Part shown: positions 20,576 to 30,860 of the stretch, in pieces
Layout of the letters: each line of letters starts with the position of its first letter
How positions within the stretch are numbered: the stretch's first letter is position 1
From: Cyclobacteriaceae bacterium
Lineage (GTDB): Bacteria; Bacteroidota; Bacteroidia; Cytophagales; Cyclobacteriaceae
Length of the DNA: 64,000 bases
Assembly (NCBI GenBank): GCA_022841475.1
Contig: JALHRJ010000019.1
Location: forward strand, 13,733-77,732
Reading direction: 5' to 3'
Translations under genes and position numbers: made by a program
The notes under the pieces: generated by a model
What the model was told of the DNA's origin: nothing
The model's database searches: none
Seen by the model: the letters and a program-made list of their open reading frames with translations, nothing else

Positions 20576-20749
20576 ATATTTCATCCCTTTGGGATTCTTG
20601 AATTATCAGTCGTGTTGTTTACCAATATGAAGTCCCTAACGGGACTAGTTACCGAAATAAAGAAGCATTCTCACCCTTAAAGTCCCGTAGGGACGGCCTA
20701 TTGGTAGAAGTTGGTATTAAATAATTCAAATCCCGTAGGGATGAAATAT
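20576..20749. repeat. Non-autonomous inverted doublet of tandem-hairpin (REP-like) units
   Basis: Hairpins ATCCC-TTT-GGGAT (20576-20596), GTCCC-TAAC-GGGAC (20620-20646), GTCCC-GTA-GGGAC (20681-20706), ATCCC-GTA-GGGAT (20729-20749); same motifs flank tnpA at 26 kb. Confidence 0.85.
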
Positions 20750-23815: not shown

Positions 23816-25984
23816 TCAATAAAAAAACACTTCGTCCACAAAAAACCAACCCTTCTGTCCTTTGCCACCATGCCAAAGCGGAAGTTTGCTAACTGGCTTT
23901 GCAATAATTTTATAATACGGATGTTTAACCAAATCAAAAGAAACGGCTAGGGCCTCCATCCGCTGAGGGCGATAGGCTAAAGGCTGCTCAACTTTTATTG
24001 ATTTGAGTAGTTTCAAATCCTGCGCATTTTTTCCACCCCACACCTCCACCTCCGTTGGTGGGAAAACATATCCACCCAGATTATCAGCATAACTCAAAAC
24101 AATTTTATGAATTGCTGGTGGTTGGATACCAAAGTCAAAGCCGGCCTCAAAATTATTTTCACGAAACCCCAGCCAGGATGGCTCCTTCAACACATCTGTA
24201 AATCCTTTTCGTCCATCGATTAAACTGCTCGCGCCTTCACCCGGATATTGTTTGTCGGCTGGTTTCAATAATGTAACTGCGTCCGATTTGTACCCATCTA
24301 CATAACAGGTAGCTTCTAACAACTCACTACAATACCAGCCTTCTTTGCAAGCCAGCGCTTTTAGCTTCACAGTTTCATTCACTACAATGGGCTTCTCATA
24401 GATTTTATTTGAACTACTATCGGGTAAACTTCCATCCAGTGAATAACGAATTACCACACCGGGCATCGAGTGCTTCAACTGAAGCAACTCACCCCTTTTC
24501 AAAATGCCCTCATTTACCAAAATAGGTTTGCTAAGCTGCAACGTGCTTGAATCATTAAACAAGTTGGCGACAATTTTAACCTTTGGATATTGATTCTGTA
24601 ACGCTACCGCTTCGGGTTCGGATATTTTTGTATTCCAGATAAATAGTTCGCGTAAGGATGGGGCGGAGATCATTGAATGAATCTCTTCATTCCCAATAGC
24701 AGTACCGGCAAGTGAAACCGATGCAAGCTTGCTTAACGATTTTAATGCTGAAAAGCCAGTGCCTTTTACATCCGTAAAATTTAAATTCAATTTTTCCAGA
24801 TTAACAAATTGGGCAATGGTTTTTAGTTGCTCATCCGTAATCGGCATCATGGAAAGATTCAAGACTACCAATTGCTCTCTAATTTCCTTTAACTCTTCCA
24901 GCGAAGCTGGTTGAAATGATTCACGCACAAAAAAATCAGCCTGTAATGCCGGACTATTCTGGTACAAAGGAAAGACCGTGCGGAACGGAGTATTTAACTT
25001 ATCAATAACATCCTGAGATACCGGATTGAAAGAGTAGATTTTCTCCTCTCTAACTTTAACCTGTGAATTAACCCGGGCAGAAACCCATTTACGAATTGTA
25101 TCCGTTTCTGAATACTCCGCTAGTTTCTTTTCAAAATCCGCACCTGCCTGAATCCACGCTTCAAGAATAAAAATCTCCTCGGGTGTCAATTGCGTTTTTC
25201 CGTCAGGCGGCATATGCAAATCATCCTCCATTGGCAAATGAATATATTGAATCAGTCGACTTGCTTCGGGATTTCCCGCTTCCCACTCAACGCCTTCTTC
25301 TCCACCCTGTTTAAACTTAGCAACCGATGTCATCACCAACCCACCCTTACTCTTCTTTTCATTGTGACAGCTAAAACATTTTTTCTCCAACACCGGCTCC
25401 ACGGCAAATTTATAGAGTGAAGAAGTTTCTACTGAAAGTTCTTCTTTCTGTTTGTTCATCAAAGGTTCCAGCACAAAATTTTCACCGTGTGTAATCATGG
25501 AACCCGTATGACCGGTAAACAACAGAGCCGCTATGGTAATGCCAACTCCTGAATAAAATATTGCCTTAATCCTTTTTATTGAATTATAAGCGATCAGAAG
25601 AAAGTAGCAGAGAAAACTAAGAATAATTCCACCGATCTTATGCTGCCAGATACTTTCTGCTCCGTAACCCTCTTGCAGGGAAAGAAACAAACCAAACAAG
25701 GCACTTAAGGAAGCGGTAATGGAAATCAGAATCAAACAGAGGAATACAATTCTTTCAAATGATTTTCTTCTGAACTCCTTTCTAAAAAAAAGTAGAACGA
25801 CCAGAAAAACCAATACTCCAATGGGAAGATGAAGTATGAGGGGATGTATTCTGCCAGCCGCTTGTAGCAAAGCAGGCAACTCAATCCGATCTTCAAATAA
25901 AAAAAGAAATAACAGTAGTACCTGCAGAAACAGAACGATGTTTAAAACTATAACCTTAACTAACCCTATCCTTCCTCTTCGCAC
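23816..25984 (-). CDS. Membrane-anchored planctomycete-type cytochrome c protein with LRR and Fn3-associated/carbohydrate-binding-like C-terminal domains
   Basis: N-terminal TMs (HPLILHLPIG), CFSCH heme motif, HMPP, LRR-like LxxLNL repeats, IRYSLDGS.P. Confidence 0.75.
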   Translation of the reverse strand: MRRGRIGLVKVIVLNIVLFLQVLLLFLFLFEDRIELPALLQAAGRIHPLILHLPIGVLVFLVVLLFFRKEFRRKSFERIVFLCLILISITASLSALFGLFLSLQEGYGAESIWQHKIGGIILSFLCYFLLIAYNSIKRIKAIFYSGVGITIAALLFTGHTGSMITHGENFVLEPLMNKQKEELSVETSSLYKFAVEPVLEKKCFSCHNEKKSKGGLVMTSVAKFKQGGEEGVEWEAGNPEASRLIQYIHLPMEDDLHMPPDGKTQLTPEEIFILEAWIQAGADFEKKLAEYSETDTIRKWVSARVNSQVKVREEKIYSFNPVSQDVIDKLNTPFRTVFPLYQNSPALQADFFVRESFQPASLEELKEIREQLVVLNLSMMPITDEQLKTIAQFVNLEKLNLNFTDVKGTGFSALKSLSKLASVSLAGTAIGNEEIHSMISAPSLRELFIWNTKISEPEAVALQNQYPKVKIVANLFNDSSTLQLSKPILVNEGILKRGELLQLKHSMPGVVIRYSLDGSLPDSSSNKIYEKPIVVNETVKLKALACKEGWYCSELLEATCYVDGYKSDAVTLLKPADKQYPGEGASSLIDGRKGFTDVLKEPSWLGFRENNFEAGFDFGIQPPAIHKIVLSYADNLGGYVFPPTEVEVWGGKNAQDLKLLKSIKVEQPLAYRPQRMEALAVSFDLVKHPYYKIIAKPVSKLPLWHGGKGQKGWFFVDEVFFY

Positions 25985-26055
25985 TTGCTAATTTTTATGT
26001 TTAATTGTGAGTTTAACTATGAAACCTATCTGCCTTAACGTTGCAACCTTAATGC

Positions 26056-26126
26056 AGTCCCATAGGGACTATATATTGGTAACAACCTAAACCCTTACCA
26101 AAGAATCCCTTTAGGGATGATATATT
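26056..26126 (+). repeat. Tandem-hairpin REP-like unit downstream of tnpA
   Basis: AGTCCC-ATA-GGGACT-ATATATTGGTA ... AATCCC-TTTA-GGGAT-GATATATT. Confidence 0.85.
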
Positions 26127-26152
26127 ATTCACAACACATTTAGTCCTGGGCA

Positions 26153-26614
26153 TTATTCCAATGGTTTAAAAATATATCGTTCATCATACTCGATATCAAA
26201 CTGATCTAAAAGTTCACGATACTCATCTAAAAATGTTTGCTTGGCATGATGAGTTTCCTGATTCTGTATATACTTGATTACGTCTGCTATCTGAGACTTA
26301 CTATACGAAAAAGCTCCAAAGCCCGATTGCCATTCAAAATGTGATGAAATAAATTTTTTATCATTAATCCATTTAGATGAATTTGCTTTTACATCCTGCA
26401 TTAAATCAGAAAGCGATTGAGTGGGGCGCATTCCAAAGAAAATGTGAACGTGATCTTCCACACCATTAATAATTAGCAACTTATGTCCATTCTGCTGAAT
26501 GATTCCCGTTATATACTTGTACAATTCGTCTTTCCAATCTTTCCCAATTACACACAATCGATACTTCACCGCAAAAACGGCTTGAATATGAATCTGTGTG
26601 TATGTGTTAGGCAT
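26153..26614 (-). mobile_element. tnpA: IS200/IS605-family HUH (Y1) transposase, no tnpB
   Basis: HUH motif EDHVHI; WQSGFGAFSYS; catalytic Tyr in VIKYIQNQ; 153 aa. Confidence 0.92.
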
Positions 26615-26630
26615 GTTTTTATTTTTCTAA

Positions 26631-26856
26631 AATATGTCGTCCCTACGGGACTTGTCATCAATCTTATACCAATTCTACCGATATGCCGTCCCTAAAGGGA
26701 CTTCGTCAACATTCATAAACTAATAATTCTACTATTACCGATATACCTCCCAATAAGACAAAACAATTCCTGACCAGATATCCTTAAGTCCCGTAGGGAC
26801 TATATTGGTAATAAACCAGTATCCATCTACACAAATCCCGTCAGGGATGATATATT
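26631..26856. repeat. Inverted doublet of tandem-hairpin units upstream of tnpA
   Basis: Unit on - strand 26631-26702, degenerate half-unit about 26731-26760, unit on + strand 26786-26856. Confidence 0.85.
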
Positions 26857-26948
26857 TTTCACATTAGCCTTAGAACAGTATAAAATAATAGGCATCAATT
26901 GAATGATCTCAAATAAATCTTCTCATATCTATTTTCATCTCAAAAAAC

Positions 26949-28397
26949 TTACGCCAAAATTCCCTCCACCACTTTACCAGCCACATCGGTGAGTCGATAA
27001 CGTCTCCCTAAATGTTTGTAGGTTAATTGTTCGTGATTAAGTCCCATCAAATGCATTACTGTAGCATGAAAATCATTTACATGCACGGGGTCCTTTATAA
27101 TATTATATCCAAACTCATCCGATTCTCCATAGACGATGCCCGGCTTTACACCACCACCTACCATCCAGATAGTATAACATCGCGGATGGTGATCACGTCC
27201 ATAATTCTCTATCGATAAATCGCCCTGACAATAATTGGTGCGGCCAAACTCACCGCCCCAAATCACTAAGGTTTCATCGAGCAGTCCGCGCTGTTTCAAA
27301 TCCATGATCAACGCAGCCGTAGAACGATCCACATCTTGTGCCTGCAACGGCATCTCTCCTACTATATTACCATGCTGATCCCAACCCTGGTGATACAACT
27401 GCACAAAGCGAACACCAGCTTCAGAAAGTTTTCGCGCCAGCAAACAGTTGGCCGCATAGGTTCCGGGCACAAGACAATCAGCACCATACATTTTAACAAT
27501 GCTATCTGGTTCTTTGGTGAGGTCGGTAAGTTCGGGCACTGCAGTCTGCATTCGATAGGCCATTTCATACTGCTGCACGCGGGTTTGGATTTCGGGATCG
27601 CCAAATTCCTGGTAGTTCAAGTCATTCAATTGCGCAAGGTTGTCAAGCATCTTTCTGCGGTCTTCACGATCACGACCTTCGGGATCTTTCAAGTACAACA
27701 CCCGTTCTTCACTGCTGCTGAATTGAACACCCTGATGTACACTGTCGAGAAAACCGTTAGTCCAGAGTTTTGAGTAAACGCCTTGACCGTTGCCCCGCCC
27801 CCGCGATAACAACACACAATAAGCCGGAAGATTTTTATTTTCACTGCCCAACCCATAACTCATCCATGCACCCATGCTGGGACGATTGCCTTGCTGTGCA
27901 CCGGTTTGCATAAATGTAAGTGCCGGATCGTGGTTGATTGCTTCGGTATGCATCGACTTAATAATGCATAGGTCATCAACTACTTTCGCGATGTTGGGGA
28001 AAAGCTCGCTTACCCACGCACCCGACTTTCCATACTGACTGAATTTAAAATGGGATCCCACTAACGGAAACTTAGCCTGACCTGAGGTCATGCCGGTTAA
28101 GCGTTGCCCCATTCGAATAGAGGCCGGAAGTTCTTCACCCGCCATTTTATTAAGCATGGGTTTGTAATCAAAACTTTCCAACTGCGAAGGAGCACCATTT
28201 TGAAAAAGATAGATAATGCGTTTTGCTTTAGGAGCAAAATGTGGAAGACCGAGAGCTTGCATCGGACCTTCTGATTTAGAAAATAGATCAGGAATCAATA
28301 AAGAGCCTAACGCAACAGAGCCTAACCCCAAACTCACTTTTCCCAAAAAGTGTCTGCGGGTAACATGCAATCGATGATCAATAAATTCTTTACTCAT
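26949..28397 (-). CDS. DUF1501 domain protein, Tat-type N-terminus
   Basis: TRRHFLG; AKRIIYLFQNGAPSQLE; GGEFGRT; GRDHHP. Confidence 0.88.
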   Translation of the reverse strand: MSKEFIDHRLHVTRRHFLGKVSLGLGSVALGSLLIPDLFSKSEGPMQALGLPHFAPKAKRIIYLFQNGAPSQLESFDYKPMLNKMAGEELPASIRMGQRLTGMTSGQAKFPLVGSHFKFSQYGKSGAWVSELFPNIAKVVDDLCIIKSMHTEAINHDPALTFMQTGAQQGNRPSMGAWMSYGLGSENKNLPAYCVLLSRGRGNGQGVYSKLWTNGFLDSVHQGVQFSSSEERVLYLKDPEGRDREDRRKMLDNLAQLNDLNYQEFGDPEIQTRVQQYEMAYRMQTAVPELTDLTKEPDSIVKMYGADCLVPGTYAANCLLARKLSEAGVRFVQLYHQGWDQHGNIVGEMPLQAQDVDRSTAALIMDLKQRGLLDETLVIWGGEFGRTNYCQGDLSIENYGRDHHPRCYTIWMVGGGVKPGIVYGESDEFGYNIIKDPVHVNDFHATVMHLMGLNHEQLTYKHLGRRYRLTDVAGKVVEGILA

Positions 28398-28411
28398 ATT
28401 TTTTTACAATT

Positions 28412-28544
28412 GAGGCTGACCAAAAAGTCACAATATCAATCGAAGTGTCATTCCGGGCTTGACCCGGAATCCCGAAATTGTGCGTACTCCTCGGGATCGC
28501 GGGTCAAATGCCCGCGATGACTGAATGACTTTTGAGACAGCCTC
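28412..28544. mobile_element. MITE-like element: outer inverted repeats enclosing a REP-like hairpin doublet
   Basis: GAGGCTGACCAAAAAGTCA (28412-28430) / TGACTTTTGAGACAGCCTC (28526-28544); inner GTCATTCCGGGCTTGACCCGGAATCC and GGATCGCGGGTCAAATGCCCGCGATGAC; second copy at 63844. Confidence 0.75.
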
Positions 28545-28550
28545 ATCTAA

Positions 28551-30860
28551 TTATGTTTTTGTAATTGCCTCATCCAAATTATAAATAGTTTGTACCACCT
28601 GCATCAGCGCAGCTAATGTTATTACATCGTTGATTTTTACATGCGGATACTCTCCTGCCGAAATAAAACTTTTTGCTTTTTCAGGAAATTGTTTGAACCC
28701 TGATTTCTCTTCTTCAAAATACTGAAGCAACATTTTTAGCTCATCGCTTTTTGGCTGTCTACACACAATAGACTGAAATGCTTTCTTAATTTTTTCTTCA
28801 ACACTTGATTGTTCTATCATCAATCGTTCTGCAAACACCCGCGCGGCTTCAAGCATTAACGGTTCGTTTAACATCACCAAGGCTTGCAACGGAGTATTTG
28901 TTCTCATTCGGGTTACTTCACATTGATCGCGATTACTGCCGTCAAACACCAGCATACCTGGAGGAGGCACTGTTCGTTTAATGAAGGAGTAAAGTCCCCT
29001 GCGATATAATTTCTCCCCATGATCCTGCACGTAGCGGGCCAGTACCCCGCGACCAGACGTAGAAGATTCCCAAATACCTTTCGGCTGATACACTTTCACA
29101 CTGGGGCCGCCAATTTCATTCACCAACAAGCCACTGCTAGCCAATGCAAGATCACGCACACCTTCAGCGGTTAAACGAGTGCGCGGGCCGCGTGACAATA
29201 AAATATTATCGGGGTCGGTGGCTAACTTTTCTTTGCTTATCGCAGAAGACTGTTTATACGTTGAAGAAGTAACAATCTGCTTTATCAAACGCTTCACATC
29301 CCAACCATGCTCTCTGAAATCAACCGCCAGCCAATCCAATAATTCCGGGTGCGAGGGCATCTCGCCCTGCATACCAAAGTCGCCACTGGTTTTTACAAGA
29401 CCTCTTCCAAAAAATTCCTGCCACATGCGGTTAACAAACACCCGCGCTGTCAATGGATTCTTTTTATCAAACAACCAACGCGAAAGTCCTAACCTATTGG
29501 TTCCATACTTTGTAGAATCATAAGGCAAAATATCGGGTGGCAAGCCAATATCCACCACTTCACCATGGGCATCATAGGCACCTCGCGTAAGCACATACGT
29601 GGGCCGCTTCCAGGTTGTATCTTTCATTACCATTACTTCCACCGGGGTGGTATCCTTTTTATTGATGAACGTGAGAATATTATTAATTTCTTCGGTGGTG
29701 ATTTTAATTTTTGGTGGATCGGCCAATGAAGCAACCTGAATATCTCCTACCAATCCTTTTTCAGGAACGCGATTAAAAAACGCGAAAGTCCGGTAATAGT
29801 CTTTTTGCGAGATGGGATCATACTTATGATCATGGCAATGGGCACACTCAAACGTAAGGGCCAGAAAAGCTTTGCCAAATGTATTTGTGCGATCGGTTAC
29901 ATATTCTACTCTGTATTCTTCATCGATTACCCCACCCTCCTGCGTGATTTTATGATTTCGGTTAAATCCTGTTGCCAGCAATTGTTCTTTGGTAGGATTC
30001 GGTAATTGATCACCCGCCAATTGCCAGGTTACAAACTGATCGTATGGATAATTTTTATTGAACGCATGAATCACCCAATCGCGCCACGGCCACATGGTAC
30101 GAAGCCCGTCATCCTGATAACCGTGCGAGTCGGCATAACGCGCAACGTCCATCCAATACACGGCCATGCGTTCGCCATACTGAGGTTGAGCCAACAACTC
30201 ATCAACTATTTTTTCATAGGCATCTTCAGACTGATCGGCCAAAAAACGATTTTGCATTTCGAGAGAAGGCGGCAGCCCGGTAATATCCAGGCTTGCTCTT
30301 TTTAATAAACGCTCGCGGTCAGCCGCTTCATTCGGTTTTAATCCGGAAGCGTCCATTCTTGCCAGTATAAACTGATCGATTTCATTCGCTACCCATTGTT
30401 CATTCACTCGTGGAAGTGCTGACTTCACCGGAGGTATAAATGCCCAATGTGGTTTGTACTTCGCACCTTGCTCAATCCATTTTTCAATTAAGTCTATTTC
30501 GTTTTTAGTCAGCGACAAATTGGAATTGGGTGGAGGCATTACCAATGAAGTGTCAGAACTAGATATCCGTAAAAATACTTCCGATTGGTTAGCATCACCC
30601 GGCACAATAACGTGTGCAGATGGATTATCCTTTAGGGCAGCCAAAGCTCCTTCACGCGTATCCAGTCGCAGGTTTGCTTTGCGCTGATTGGCATCGGGCC
30701 CATGACATTTAAAGCAACGGTCGGATAAAATGGGGCGAATGTGAAGGTTGAAGTCTACGGAATCCGAACTGAAGGTTGTAGAATTATTGTCCCGACAACT
30801 TGTTAAGAAAATTCCTGAGGCCAGGGCAAAAAGAATGACGAATCCGATGGCAAACCTCAT
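28551..30860 (-). CDS. PSD1/planctomycete cytochrome c lipoprotein (DUF1549/DUF1553)
   Basis: Lipobox FLTSC; CFKCH and CAHCH heme motifs; WLDVARY-like WMDVARYADSHG; HPELLDWLA; NTPLQAL. Confidence 0.88.
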   Translation of the reverse strand: MRFAIGFVILFALASGIFLTSCRDNNSTTFSSDSVDFNLHIRPILSDRCFKCHGPDANQRKANLRLDTREGALAALKDNPSAHVIVPGDANQSEVFLRISSSDTSLVMPPPNSNLSLTKNEIDLIEKWIEQGAKYKPHWAFIPPVKSALPRVNEQWVANEIDQFILARMDASGLKPNEAADRERLLKRASLDITGLPPSLEMQNRFLADQSEDAYEKIVDELLAQPQYGERMAVYWMDVARYADSHGYQDDGLRTMWPWRDWVIHAFNKNYPYDQFVTWQLAGDQLPNPTKEQLLATGFNRNHKITQEGGVIDEEYRVEYVTDRTNTFGKAFLALTFECAHCHDHKYDPISQKDYYRTFAFFNRVPEKGLVGDIQVASLADPPKIKITTEEINNILTFINKKDTTPVEVMVMKDTTWKRPTYVLTRGAYDAHGEVVDIGLPPDILPYDSTKYGTNRLGLSRWLFDKKNPLTARVFVNRMWQEFFGRGLVKTSGDFGMQGEMPSHPELLDWLAVDFREHGWDVKRLIKQIVTSSTYKQSSAISKEKLATDPDNILLSRGPRTRLTAEGVRDLALASSGLLVNEIGGPSVKVYQPKGIWESSTSGRGVLARYVQDHGEKLYRRGLYSFIKRTVPPPGMLVFDGSNRDQCEVTRMRTNTPLQALVMLNEPLMLEAARVFAERLMIEQSSVEEKIKKAFQSIVCRQPKSDELKMLLQYFEEEKSGFKQFPEKAKSFISAGEYPHVKINDVITLAALMQVVQTIYNLDEAITKT

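Follow-up and report, generated by a model that had tools for sequence, protein, structure and literature searches.

The 64,000-nucleotide stretch analyzed here (the window, C19:13733-77732) carries a solitary tnpA gene, which encodes an HUH/Y1 enzyme and is bordered by short tandem hairpins. The locus raises the question of whether these hairpins are the ends of an ordinary insertion sequence (IS) of the IS200 type or the repeats of a system comparable to the repetitive extragenic palindromes (REPs) and their REP-associated tyrosine transposases (RAYTs). The initial annotation of the window favored a REP-RAYT-like system built on an IS200-type enzyme; the enzyme models, single-copy paralogs, synteny, and five gene-free repeat loci described below agree with it. 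The locus is probably REPtron-like: a Y1 HUH enzyme of the IS200 branch (subclass 1.2), domesticated and encoded by a single-copy gene, to which activity is assigned by analogy, is combined with cognate repeats.

The studied genome (G000) is a 5.7-Mb draft in 282 contigs, with 41.5% G+C and a completeness of 94%, and its closest relatives are Cyclobacteriaceae metagenome-assembled genomes (MAGs). In the comparisons, G009 is the closest genome, G009 and G010 represent two sister species, and G021 belongs to the same genus.

Hairpin repeats at the tnpA locus

The repeat consists of a 5-bp G+C hairpin, RTCCC-N3-4-GGGAY, followed by the conserved tail GAAATATYGGTA; in the aligned copies, the 5-bp stem precedes a tail of the form G-R-N-ATAT-(T)GGTA. 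GTCCC stems carrying the full TATTGGTA tail alternate with ATCCC stems, whose GAHATAT tail is shorter. Neither GTAG nor GTGG occurs at the hairpin foot, and conservation resides in the 3' tail. An arm is formed by two hairpins spaced about 48 bp apart, and a unit of about 170 nt by two inverted arms.

The pattern [AG]TCCC-N3-4-GGGA[CT] resulted in 10 matches in the window. Six hairpins surround tnpA (starting at 26057, 26105, 26639, 26688, 26788, and 26835), and four lie at a site without the gene (20583, 20632, 20682, and 20730). A fixed hairpin period had been claimed for five units, and the within-pair spacings of the five pairs, 48, 49, 47, 49, and 48 bp, bear this out. Across the genome, the pattern has 33 matches, 19 of them family members; the approximately 14 non-family matches in 5.7 Mb correspond to a background of about 0.16 per 64 kb, and control stems of the same composition gave 1-10 matches genome-wide. 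Because of this background and these controls, the 10 hairpins in the window are not attributable to chance.

The arrangement originally described, with one unit downstream of tnpA and an inverted pair plus a degenerate half-unit upstream, was recovered in full (Table 1). The downstream copy is a single arm, kept in G009 and absent in G010. The arm directly upstream directs its tails, AATATGTC and TACCGATATGCC, at tnpA, with the nearest hairpin 24 bp from the ATG, and forms a complete inverted doublet with the distal arm, in which 26634-26653 pairs with 26786-26805 at 90%; both arms are kept in G009 and G010. This upstream doublet (26627-26863) has a longer spacer that contains the decayed copy, and the G009 ortholog of that copy is intact (TACCAATATGCC-GTCCCTAAAAGGAC). 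The two arms bordering tnpA are mutually inverted, with their tails inward toward the gene. The gene-free copy, cluster A, folds as single-stranded DNA at -36.3 kcal/mol, against -14.7 +/- 2.7 for shuffled sequences (z = -7.9). A second hairpin within the stretch of about 20 nt inside the arms was considered and rejected as a general feature, as only 26072-26104 shows one (TTGGTAA/TTACCAA).

Table 1. Coordinates of tnpA and the hairpin repeats in the window.
Feature	Position	Strand	Basis or content
tnpA, HUH/Y1 enzyme, 153 aa, TnpA-Y1 subclass 1.2 type	26153..26614	-	Open reading frame (ORF) and Pfam Y1_Tnp
Arm downstream of tnpA	26055..26133	+	AGTCCC-ATA-GGGACT with tail ATATATTGGTAA; 48 bp on, ATCCC-TTTA-GGGAT with tail GATATATT
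Arm directly upstream of tnpA	26627..26704	-	Hairpins 26639-26651, 26688-26701
Decayed REP copy (TACCGATATACC-TCCCAATAAGAC)	26736..26759 (approx.)	-	Comparison with G009
Distal upstream arm	26786..26863	+	Hairpins 26788-26800, 26835-26848
Gene-free REPIN-like copy (cluster A)	20576..20749	.	Hairpins 20583 -, 20632 -, 20682 +, 20730 +

Distribution of the repeats and tnpA paralogs in the genome

A profile search of the genome assigned approximately 22-24 hairpins to the family, distributed over six loci, with 6 hairpins at the tnpA locus. The other five loci carry no tnpA (window 20576-20749; C17:43527-43710; C20; C41:12290-12446; C69:4394-4552). Each of the five has its four hairpins arranged as - - + +, two tandem pairs inverted relative to each other, and the genome-wide count and orientation proposed as a check speak for a REP-RAYT-like system. 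These copies are inverted, extragenic, and foldable end to end as a single strand, as in REPINs, the inverted REP doublets. The mobile unit had been proposed to be the tandem-hairpin pair; the tandem pairs stand as the arms, whereas the dispersed unit is an inverted pair of them. The single-copy gene, its cognate flanking repeats, and the dispersed copies give the locus the layout of a REPtron.

The genome encodes three tnpA paralogs (100, 57, and 50% identity), each single-copy in a whole-genome tblastn search, and no second tnpA copy above 57% identity was found in the draft at its 94% completeness. The 57%-identical paralog (C188:742-1191) is accompanied by its own hairpin, GCCCC-AGC-GGGGC with a G..ATAT tail, and the 50%-identical paralog (C61:14738-15196) by GCTCC-NNN-GGAGC; these two hairpin families were found nowhere else in the genome than beside those paralogs. 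Each paralog has a private hairpin family, making three pairs of gene and repeat in one genome.

Two of the REP clusters lie within an element of about 340 bp that resembles a miniature inverted-repeat transposable element (MITE), at C17:43449-43790 and C20:23130-23375. It has 21-bp terminal inverted repeats (CACCATAGTCGTTAACTTAAG) with duplication-like TCCT or TCTT at the ends, and its apparent insertion site is the loop of an 11-bp palindrome (CTCGGTCTGTG/CACAGACCGAG). At least three copies of it occur at contig ends in G009, with 96-98% identity, compared with 88-93% for the flanks.

Enzyme class of TnpA

Pfam Y1_Tnp covers the full length of the tnpA product (E 1e-26). Its motifs are DHVH at 54-57 (D54-H55-V56-H57), WQ at 95-96 (W95-Q96), and Y115-IQN-Q119-ET-H122-H123, and the catalytic residues are present. 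In the alignment, D54, H55, H57, W95, and Q96 are invariant among 38 homologs, and 39 of 40 diverse homologs with 34-66% identity have the Y---Q--HH motif.

The NCBIfam IS200/IS605 model NF033573 gave 68.4 bits (cutoff 55), and the REP_Tyr_transpos model NF047646 gave 21.7 bits, below its cutoff of 80. The Y---NP motif of class-2 RAYTs is absent from the product, which reads YIQNQE. A PDB sequence search retrieved ISDra2 TnpA (E 7e-7), and E. coli TnpA-REP was not among its matches. The AlphaFold model, built from 38 homologs with a predicted local distance difference test (pLDDT) score of 84.5, was closest in a fold search to the ISDra2 and IS608 TnpA structures (E 5e-9 to 1e-7); E. coli TnpA-REP (PDB 4ER8) ranked 30th, with an E of 1.4e-5. 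The enzyme belongs to the IS200 side of the family and not to the class-2 RAYTs. Within that side, the published motif signatures of Quentin et al. 2018 place it, as judged by sequence, in subclass 1.2.

A solo tnpA without tnpB had been reported, and the neighborhood is consistent with this: the flanking genes encode a PSCyt1 cytochrome protein (23816-25984) and a DUF1501 protein (26949-28397), neither of which is a TnpB, no tnpB lies near tnpA, and the only two TnpB-like ORFs of the genome are on contig C2. The latter (C2:23492-23689 and 29981-30172) are TnpB/Cas12f-like, with open frames of 425 and 486 aa, 6.5 kb apart, and without an adjoining Y1 tnpA. Around tnpA, window 23816-30860 holds a co-oriented set of PSD1 (DUF1549/1553), DUF1501, and PSCyt1-cytochrome genes that is interrupted by the module of tnpA and REPs.

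Synteny, selection, and repeat turnover in relatives

The locus was compared with its counterparts in the related genomes. In G009, tnpA (89% identity at the amino acid level) lies between the same two flanking genes, and in G010 it occupies the same locus (81%), next to DUF1501. At the nucleotide level, tnpA is 89% identical to its G009 counterpart and the adjoining DUF1501 gene 91%, and dN/dS for tnpA is 0.07-0.11 in all three pairs, which denotes purifying selection. The flanking genes of G021 are about 40 bp apart, an empty site without tnpA and without hairpins. The single-copy, syntenic state that had been named as a mark of domestication is thus the one observed. With no identical copies, the same locus in the sister species, and this dN/dS, tnpA behaves as described for RAYTs and not as an active IS. 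The pattern could stem from an ancient insertion or from later losses.

Repeat clusters, in turn, are gained or lost between sister species. Cluster A is absent from the orthologous intergenic region in G009, G010, and G022, and the C41 locus, which has four hairpins in the studied genome, has a single decayed one in G009 and lacks them in G010.

According to the IS200 alternative, an ordinary autonomous element would have the hairpins as its left and right ends and would be single-copy by chance in a draft genome. The NCBIfam score above the cutoff, the fold nearest to true IS transposases, the empty site in G021, and the patchy occurrence within the genus are all compatible with such an element. 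However, the three paralogs share just 50-57% identity, with no identical copies, and the same locus is occupied in three species, with divergence like that of the flanks and dN/dS of about 0.1. The flanking arms are inverted with tails inward, opposite to the IS608 layout; hairpins stand at five tnpA-free loci; and the tyrosine motif is Y---Q--HH instead of Y[IV]ENQ. Hairpins confined to the ends of identical tnpA copies, the outcome that the initial annotation had associated with an ordinary IS200, were not seen. Copy number and synteny largely refute this alternative, which we regard as very unlikely.

Another genome of the genus, G023, has two equally scoring Y1 ORFs (C17:83-445 and C12:27300-27662) of 148 aa and 24% identity, which may represent a genuine multi-copy IS200 and would then serve as a contrast to tnpA.

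Generality across Bacteroidota

A homolog scan covering one genome per species yielded 529 relatives, and 80 loci across Bacteroidota were kept, with 61-89% identity. Forty further loci, with 34-66% identity, came from a phylum sample, giving 120 homologous loci in total. In 117 of the 120, the gene has at least two short G+C-rich hairpins with 5-bp stems within 450 bp, and the pairing of gene and hairpins recurs across Bacteroidota. Such hairpins are about 7-fold enriched near the gene, at 7.1/kb within 450 bp compared with 0.95/kb beyond 1.2 kb. Over these loci, the hairpins are most often spaced 47-54 bp apart from start to start, and a smaller maximum falls at 29-31 bp. The tails of 449 RTCCC hairpins have the consensus G-A-a-A-T-A-T-y-G-G-T-A; position +4 is A in 94% of them, and position +7 is T in 81%. 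The stem type follows the protein tree, as 'RTCCC versus other' requires 23 changes, compared with 37.6 on average and never fewer than 30 when the types were shuffled 300 times. The enzyme family is large, with at least 7,987 protein clusters matching the tnpA query at E<=1e-20.

Repeat numbers vary, and the genome-wide counts of GTCCC hairpins range from 0 to 60 across ten other genomes. In a Saprospiraceae MAG (G007; L155-L164), doublets of about 150 bp with perfect two-fold symmetry are dispersed in at least 20 copies. Their arms have the layout of the Rfam motif Acido-Lenti-1, namely GTCCC-GGA-GGGAC, then GGCATGTTATAGC, then GAGGGAT-GTGA-ATCCCTC, and the doublet hairpin also flanks a 42%-identical paralog at G007:C31:20403-20834.

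The regular arrays also bring to mind a CRISPR-like or guide-encoding system, in which hairpin repeats with variable spacers would program a nuclease. The period of about 50 bp, the variable spacers of about 20 nt in some arrays (L013 and the window), and the adjoining nuclease-type gene fit this idea. Nevertheless, the whole 48-50-bp unit, including the 'spacer', is duplicated in L049 and L066, HUH enzymes recognize hairpins directly, and no cas, tnpB, or iscB gene is nearby. The sole Rfam CRISPR-repeat match in the window is weak (CRISPR-DR12, 14.9 vs 37 bits), and 20 related loci gave no match at the gathering score. The whole-unit duplication and the lack of nearby cas or tnpB led us to reject this reading, which we consider hardly credible.

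Four homologs with 63-67% identity were found on contigs labeled Pirellulaceae (L060), Planctomycetota (L062), Bifidobacterium (L055), and Limiplasma (L079). GTCCC hairpins lie near tnpA in the first three, and none were seen at L079; these genes reflect either horizontal transfer or mis-binned Bacteroidota contigs. In-frame stops in the homologs L010:3001-3459, G027:C254:2203-2655, and G092:C24:408961-409419 may indicate decaying copies.

Relation to the Acido-Lenti-1 motif

The repeat was also compared with Rfam Acido-Lenti-1 (RF01687). The Acido-Lenti-1 RNA motif was published by Weinberg et al. 2010 (PMC2864571) and is said there only to lie near group II introns in some cases; Rfam files it as a small RNA (sRNA) of unknown function, and two 2026 preprints likewise call its function unknown. 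The full motif comprises a 20-nt hairpin, then CUACCAAUAUnnC, then a hairpin with a 5-bp stem. Its 3' half, CUAnnnUAUGCC followed by the 5-bp-stem hairpin, shares the layout of our repeat on its opposite strand, TACCAATATGNC followed by GTCCC...GGGAC, whereas the 20-nt 5' hairpin is replaced in the window by a variable stretch of about 20 nt. Because that hairpin is missing, the window repeat (26627-26652, matching model positions 21-46, the 3' half) scores just 25.6 bits and stays below the gathering score of 37 bits, which applies to both hairpins. The studied genome has 0 RF01687 matches at E<=0.001 with Infernal's stricter filters, and Rfam at the gathering score found none in 20 related loci; the resemblance in the closest clade is only partial.

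The association with the enzyme was quantified in 100 Bacteroidota genomes, with homologs called at E<=1e-20. Acido-Lenti-1 matches were present in 22 genomes and a tnpA homolog in 43; 17 of the 22 carriers of the motif had a homolog, compared with 26 of the 78 non-carriers. Moreover, 14 of 92 matches lay within 1 kb of a homolog, where about 0.2 would be expected by our own estimate, and two of these 14 (G131:C14 and G079:C1) were above the cutoff. The supplement of Weinberg et al. 2010 gives no IS200 or COG1943 annotation around the original seeds (Lentisphaera, Koribacter). In the literature searched, coverage of which was incomplete, no paper connected Acido-Lenti-1 with Y1 enzymes, and an earlier description elsewhere is possible. 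The initial annotation had left open whether the family was already catalogued; it is not wholly uncatalogued, as the enzyme corresponds to subclass 1.2 in the classification of Quentin et al. 2018 and Acido-Lenti-1 is a relative of the repeat.

This relationship raises the alternative that the hairpins are RNA elements, such as sRNAs of the Acido-Lenti-1 type, terminators, or mRNA stabilizers, whose proximity to tnpA would not make them substrates of its product. Rfam assigns the related motif to the sRNAs on the basis of covariation, clusters occupy 3' intergenic DNA (the one at C41, for instance, lies between convergent genes), and such secondary roles are known for REPs elsewhere (PMC6006769). 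On the other hand, the stem sequence shifts with the clade of the adjoining enzyme, each paralog has its private family, and Acido-Lenti-1 matches lie near homologs far more often than our estimate predicts. In addition, the two-fold symmetry of the units gives no preferred strand, and the hairpins are not followed by a U-tract. We therefore consider an RNA role in place of a substrate role unlikely.

Comparison with known systems and proposed mechanism

Quentin, Siguier, Chandler & Fichant 2018 (PMC6006769) described subclass 1.2 as proteins with a median of 148 aa from Cyanobacteria and Bacteroidetes, averaging 1.7 copies per genome with 36% mutual identity. They stated that the subclass 'does not share IS properties' and entered 'REP: no' in their table. 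The tnpA product shares with it DH[IV]H, WQ, Y---Q--HH, a length of about 150 aa, and the conserved C-terminal tail, as well as low copy number with divergent paralogs, non-IS behavior, and occurrence in Bacteroidetes. It departs from the published 'REP: no' in that 117 of 120 loci have hairpins and the RTCCC clade has a conserved 3' tail. The REP search in that study admitted only repeats with GTAG or GTGG at the foot and a basal stem 7-20 nt long; because of these demands, including the minimum stem length of 7 bp, the present repeats would have been undetectable.

The REP/REPIN-RAYT systems of Proteobacteria (E. coli REPtron, Pseudomonas fluorescens REPINs) likewise combine a single-copy, vertically inherited Y1 gene with flanking cognate palindromes, one repeat family per paralog, and dispersed, gene-free inverted doublets foldable to a long hairpin. 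In contrast, the tnpA studied here is class 1 (Y---Q--HH) and not class 2 (Y---NP), a 12-nt tail 3' of a 5-bp stem is conserved in place of a GTAG foot, the arms hold two hairpins about 48 bp apart, and the copy number is in the tens and not in the hundreds. With IS200/IS605 elements (IS608, ISDra2), the system shares the HUH/Y1 fold and the use of subterminal hairpins, and the inner pair of the doublet has the site-hairpin ... hairpin-site topology of IS608. Unlike them, tnpA is not multi-copy, has no tnpB, and lies outside and not inside the doublet. Same-strand left and right subterminal hairpins bounding the gene were not found here; the flanking arms are inverted, with tails inward.

The REPtron-like interpretation implies a mechanism modeled on IS608, ISDra2, and E. 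coli TnpA-REP (PMC6006769 and PDB entries). TnpA would bind the hairpin in its single-stranded form, such as on the lagging-strand template, and the flanking bases would position its cut near the conserved tail. Occasional copying or moving of units by TnpA could yield tandem arrays by the gene and a few dispersed copies. As a single strand, the unit of about 170 nt can fold back on itself in the manner of a REPIN, and the two-fold symmetry of the doublet would allow processing of either strand. Head-to-tail arrays with a period of about 50 bp would arise if the unit carried its own target at one end.

Several points weigh against this interpretation. We infer hairpin binding, cleavage, catalysis, and mobility by analogy. 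Only five gene-free clusters occur in the genome, so the hairpin family is small here and far below typical REPIN populations of tens to hundreds. Within the genus, tnpA is patchy, with a homolog in 10 of 18 other genomes and a best identity of 75%, which makes its horizontal transfer possible. The filled and empty sites compared at cluster A and C41 gave no exact junctions or target sites; the intergenic flanks have diverged and one decayed hairpin persists in G009, so that junctions are not fixed and repeat loss is indistinguishable from gain. The control for hairpin density near and far from the gene sets intergenic DNA against mostly coding DNA. In the RTCCC clade, 82% of the oriented upstream copies point toward the gene and only 63% of the downstream copies have the opposite orientation, and some distant clades (as in G052 and G131:C20) have flanking motifs in direct repeat. 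A strict inverted orientation was therefore rejected as a rule of the family and holds as a tendency only.

Significance

Beyond this locus, we lean toward the broader reading that subclass 1.2, which occurs in about 44% of the Bacteroidota genomes sampled, is the enzyme of a second REP/REPIN-type partnership, with an independent origin on the IS200 side. Its partner would be a short hairpin with an ATAT..GGTA tail and a period of about 50 bp, and this partner family would include Acido-Lenti-1 as a single-strand DNA substrate and not as an RNA gene. The large Y1 subclass described in 2018 as neither IS nor REP-associated would thereby gain a likely DNA partner, hence a testable function, and Acido-Lenti-1, unexplained since 2010 and still annotated as a possible regulator, may be accounted for. 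Partnerships between REPIN-like repeats and an enzyme may have evolved more than once. Such partnerships would also exist at low copy number, where searches based on repeat counts miss them. Finally, the short hairpin-plus-tail substrate would offer a simple system for the study of target recognition by HUH enzymes, to which the orthogonal pairs within one genome would add.

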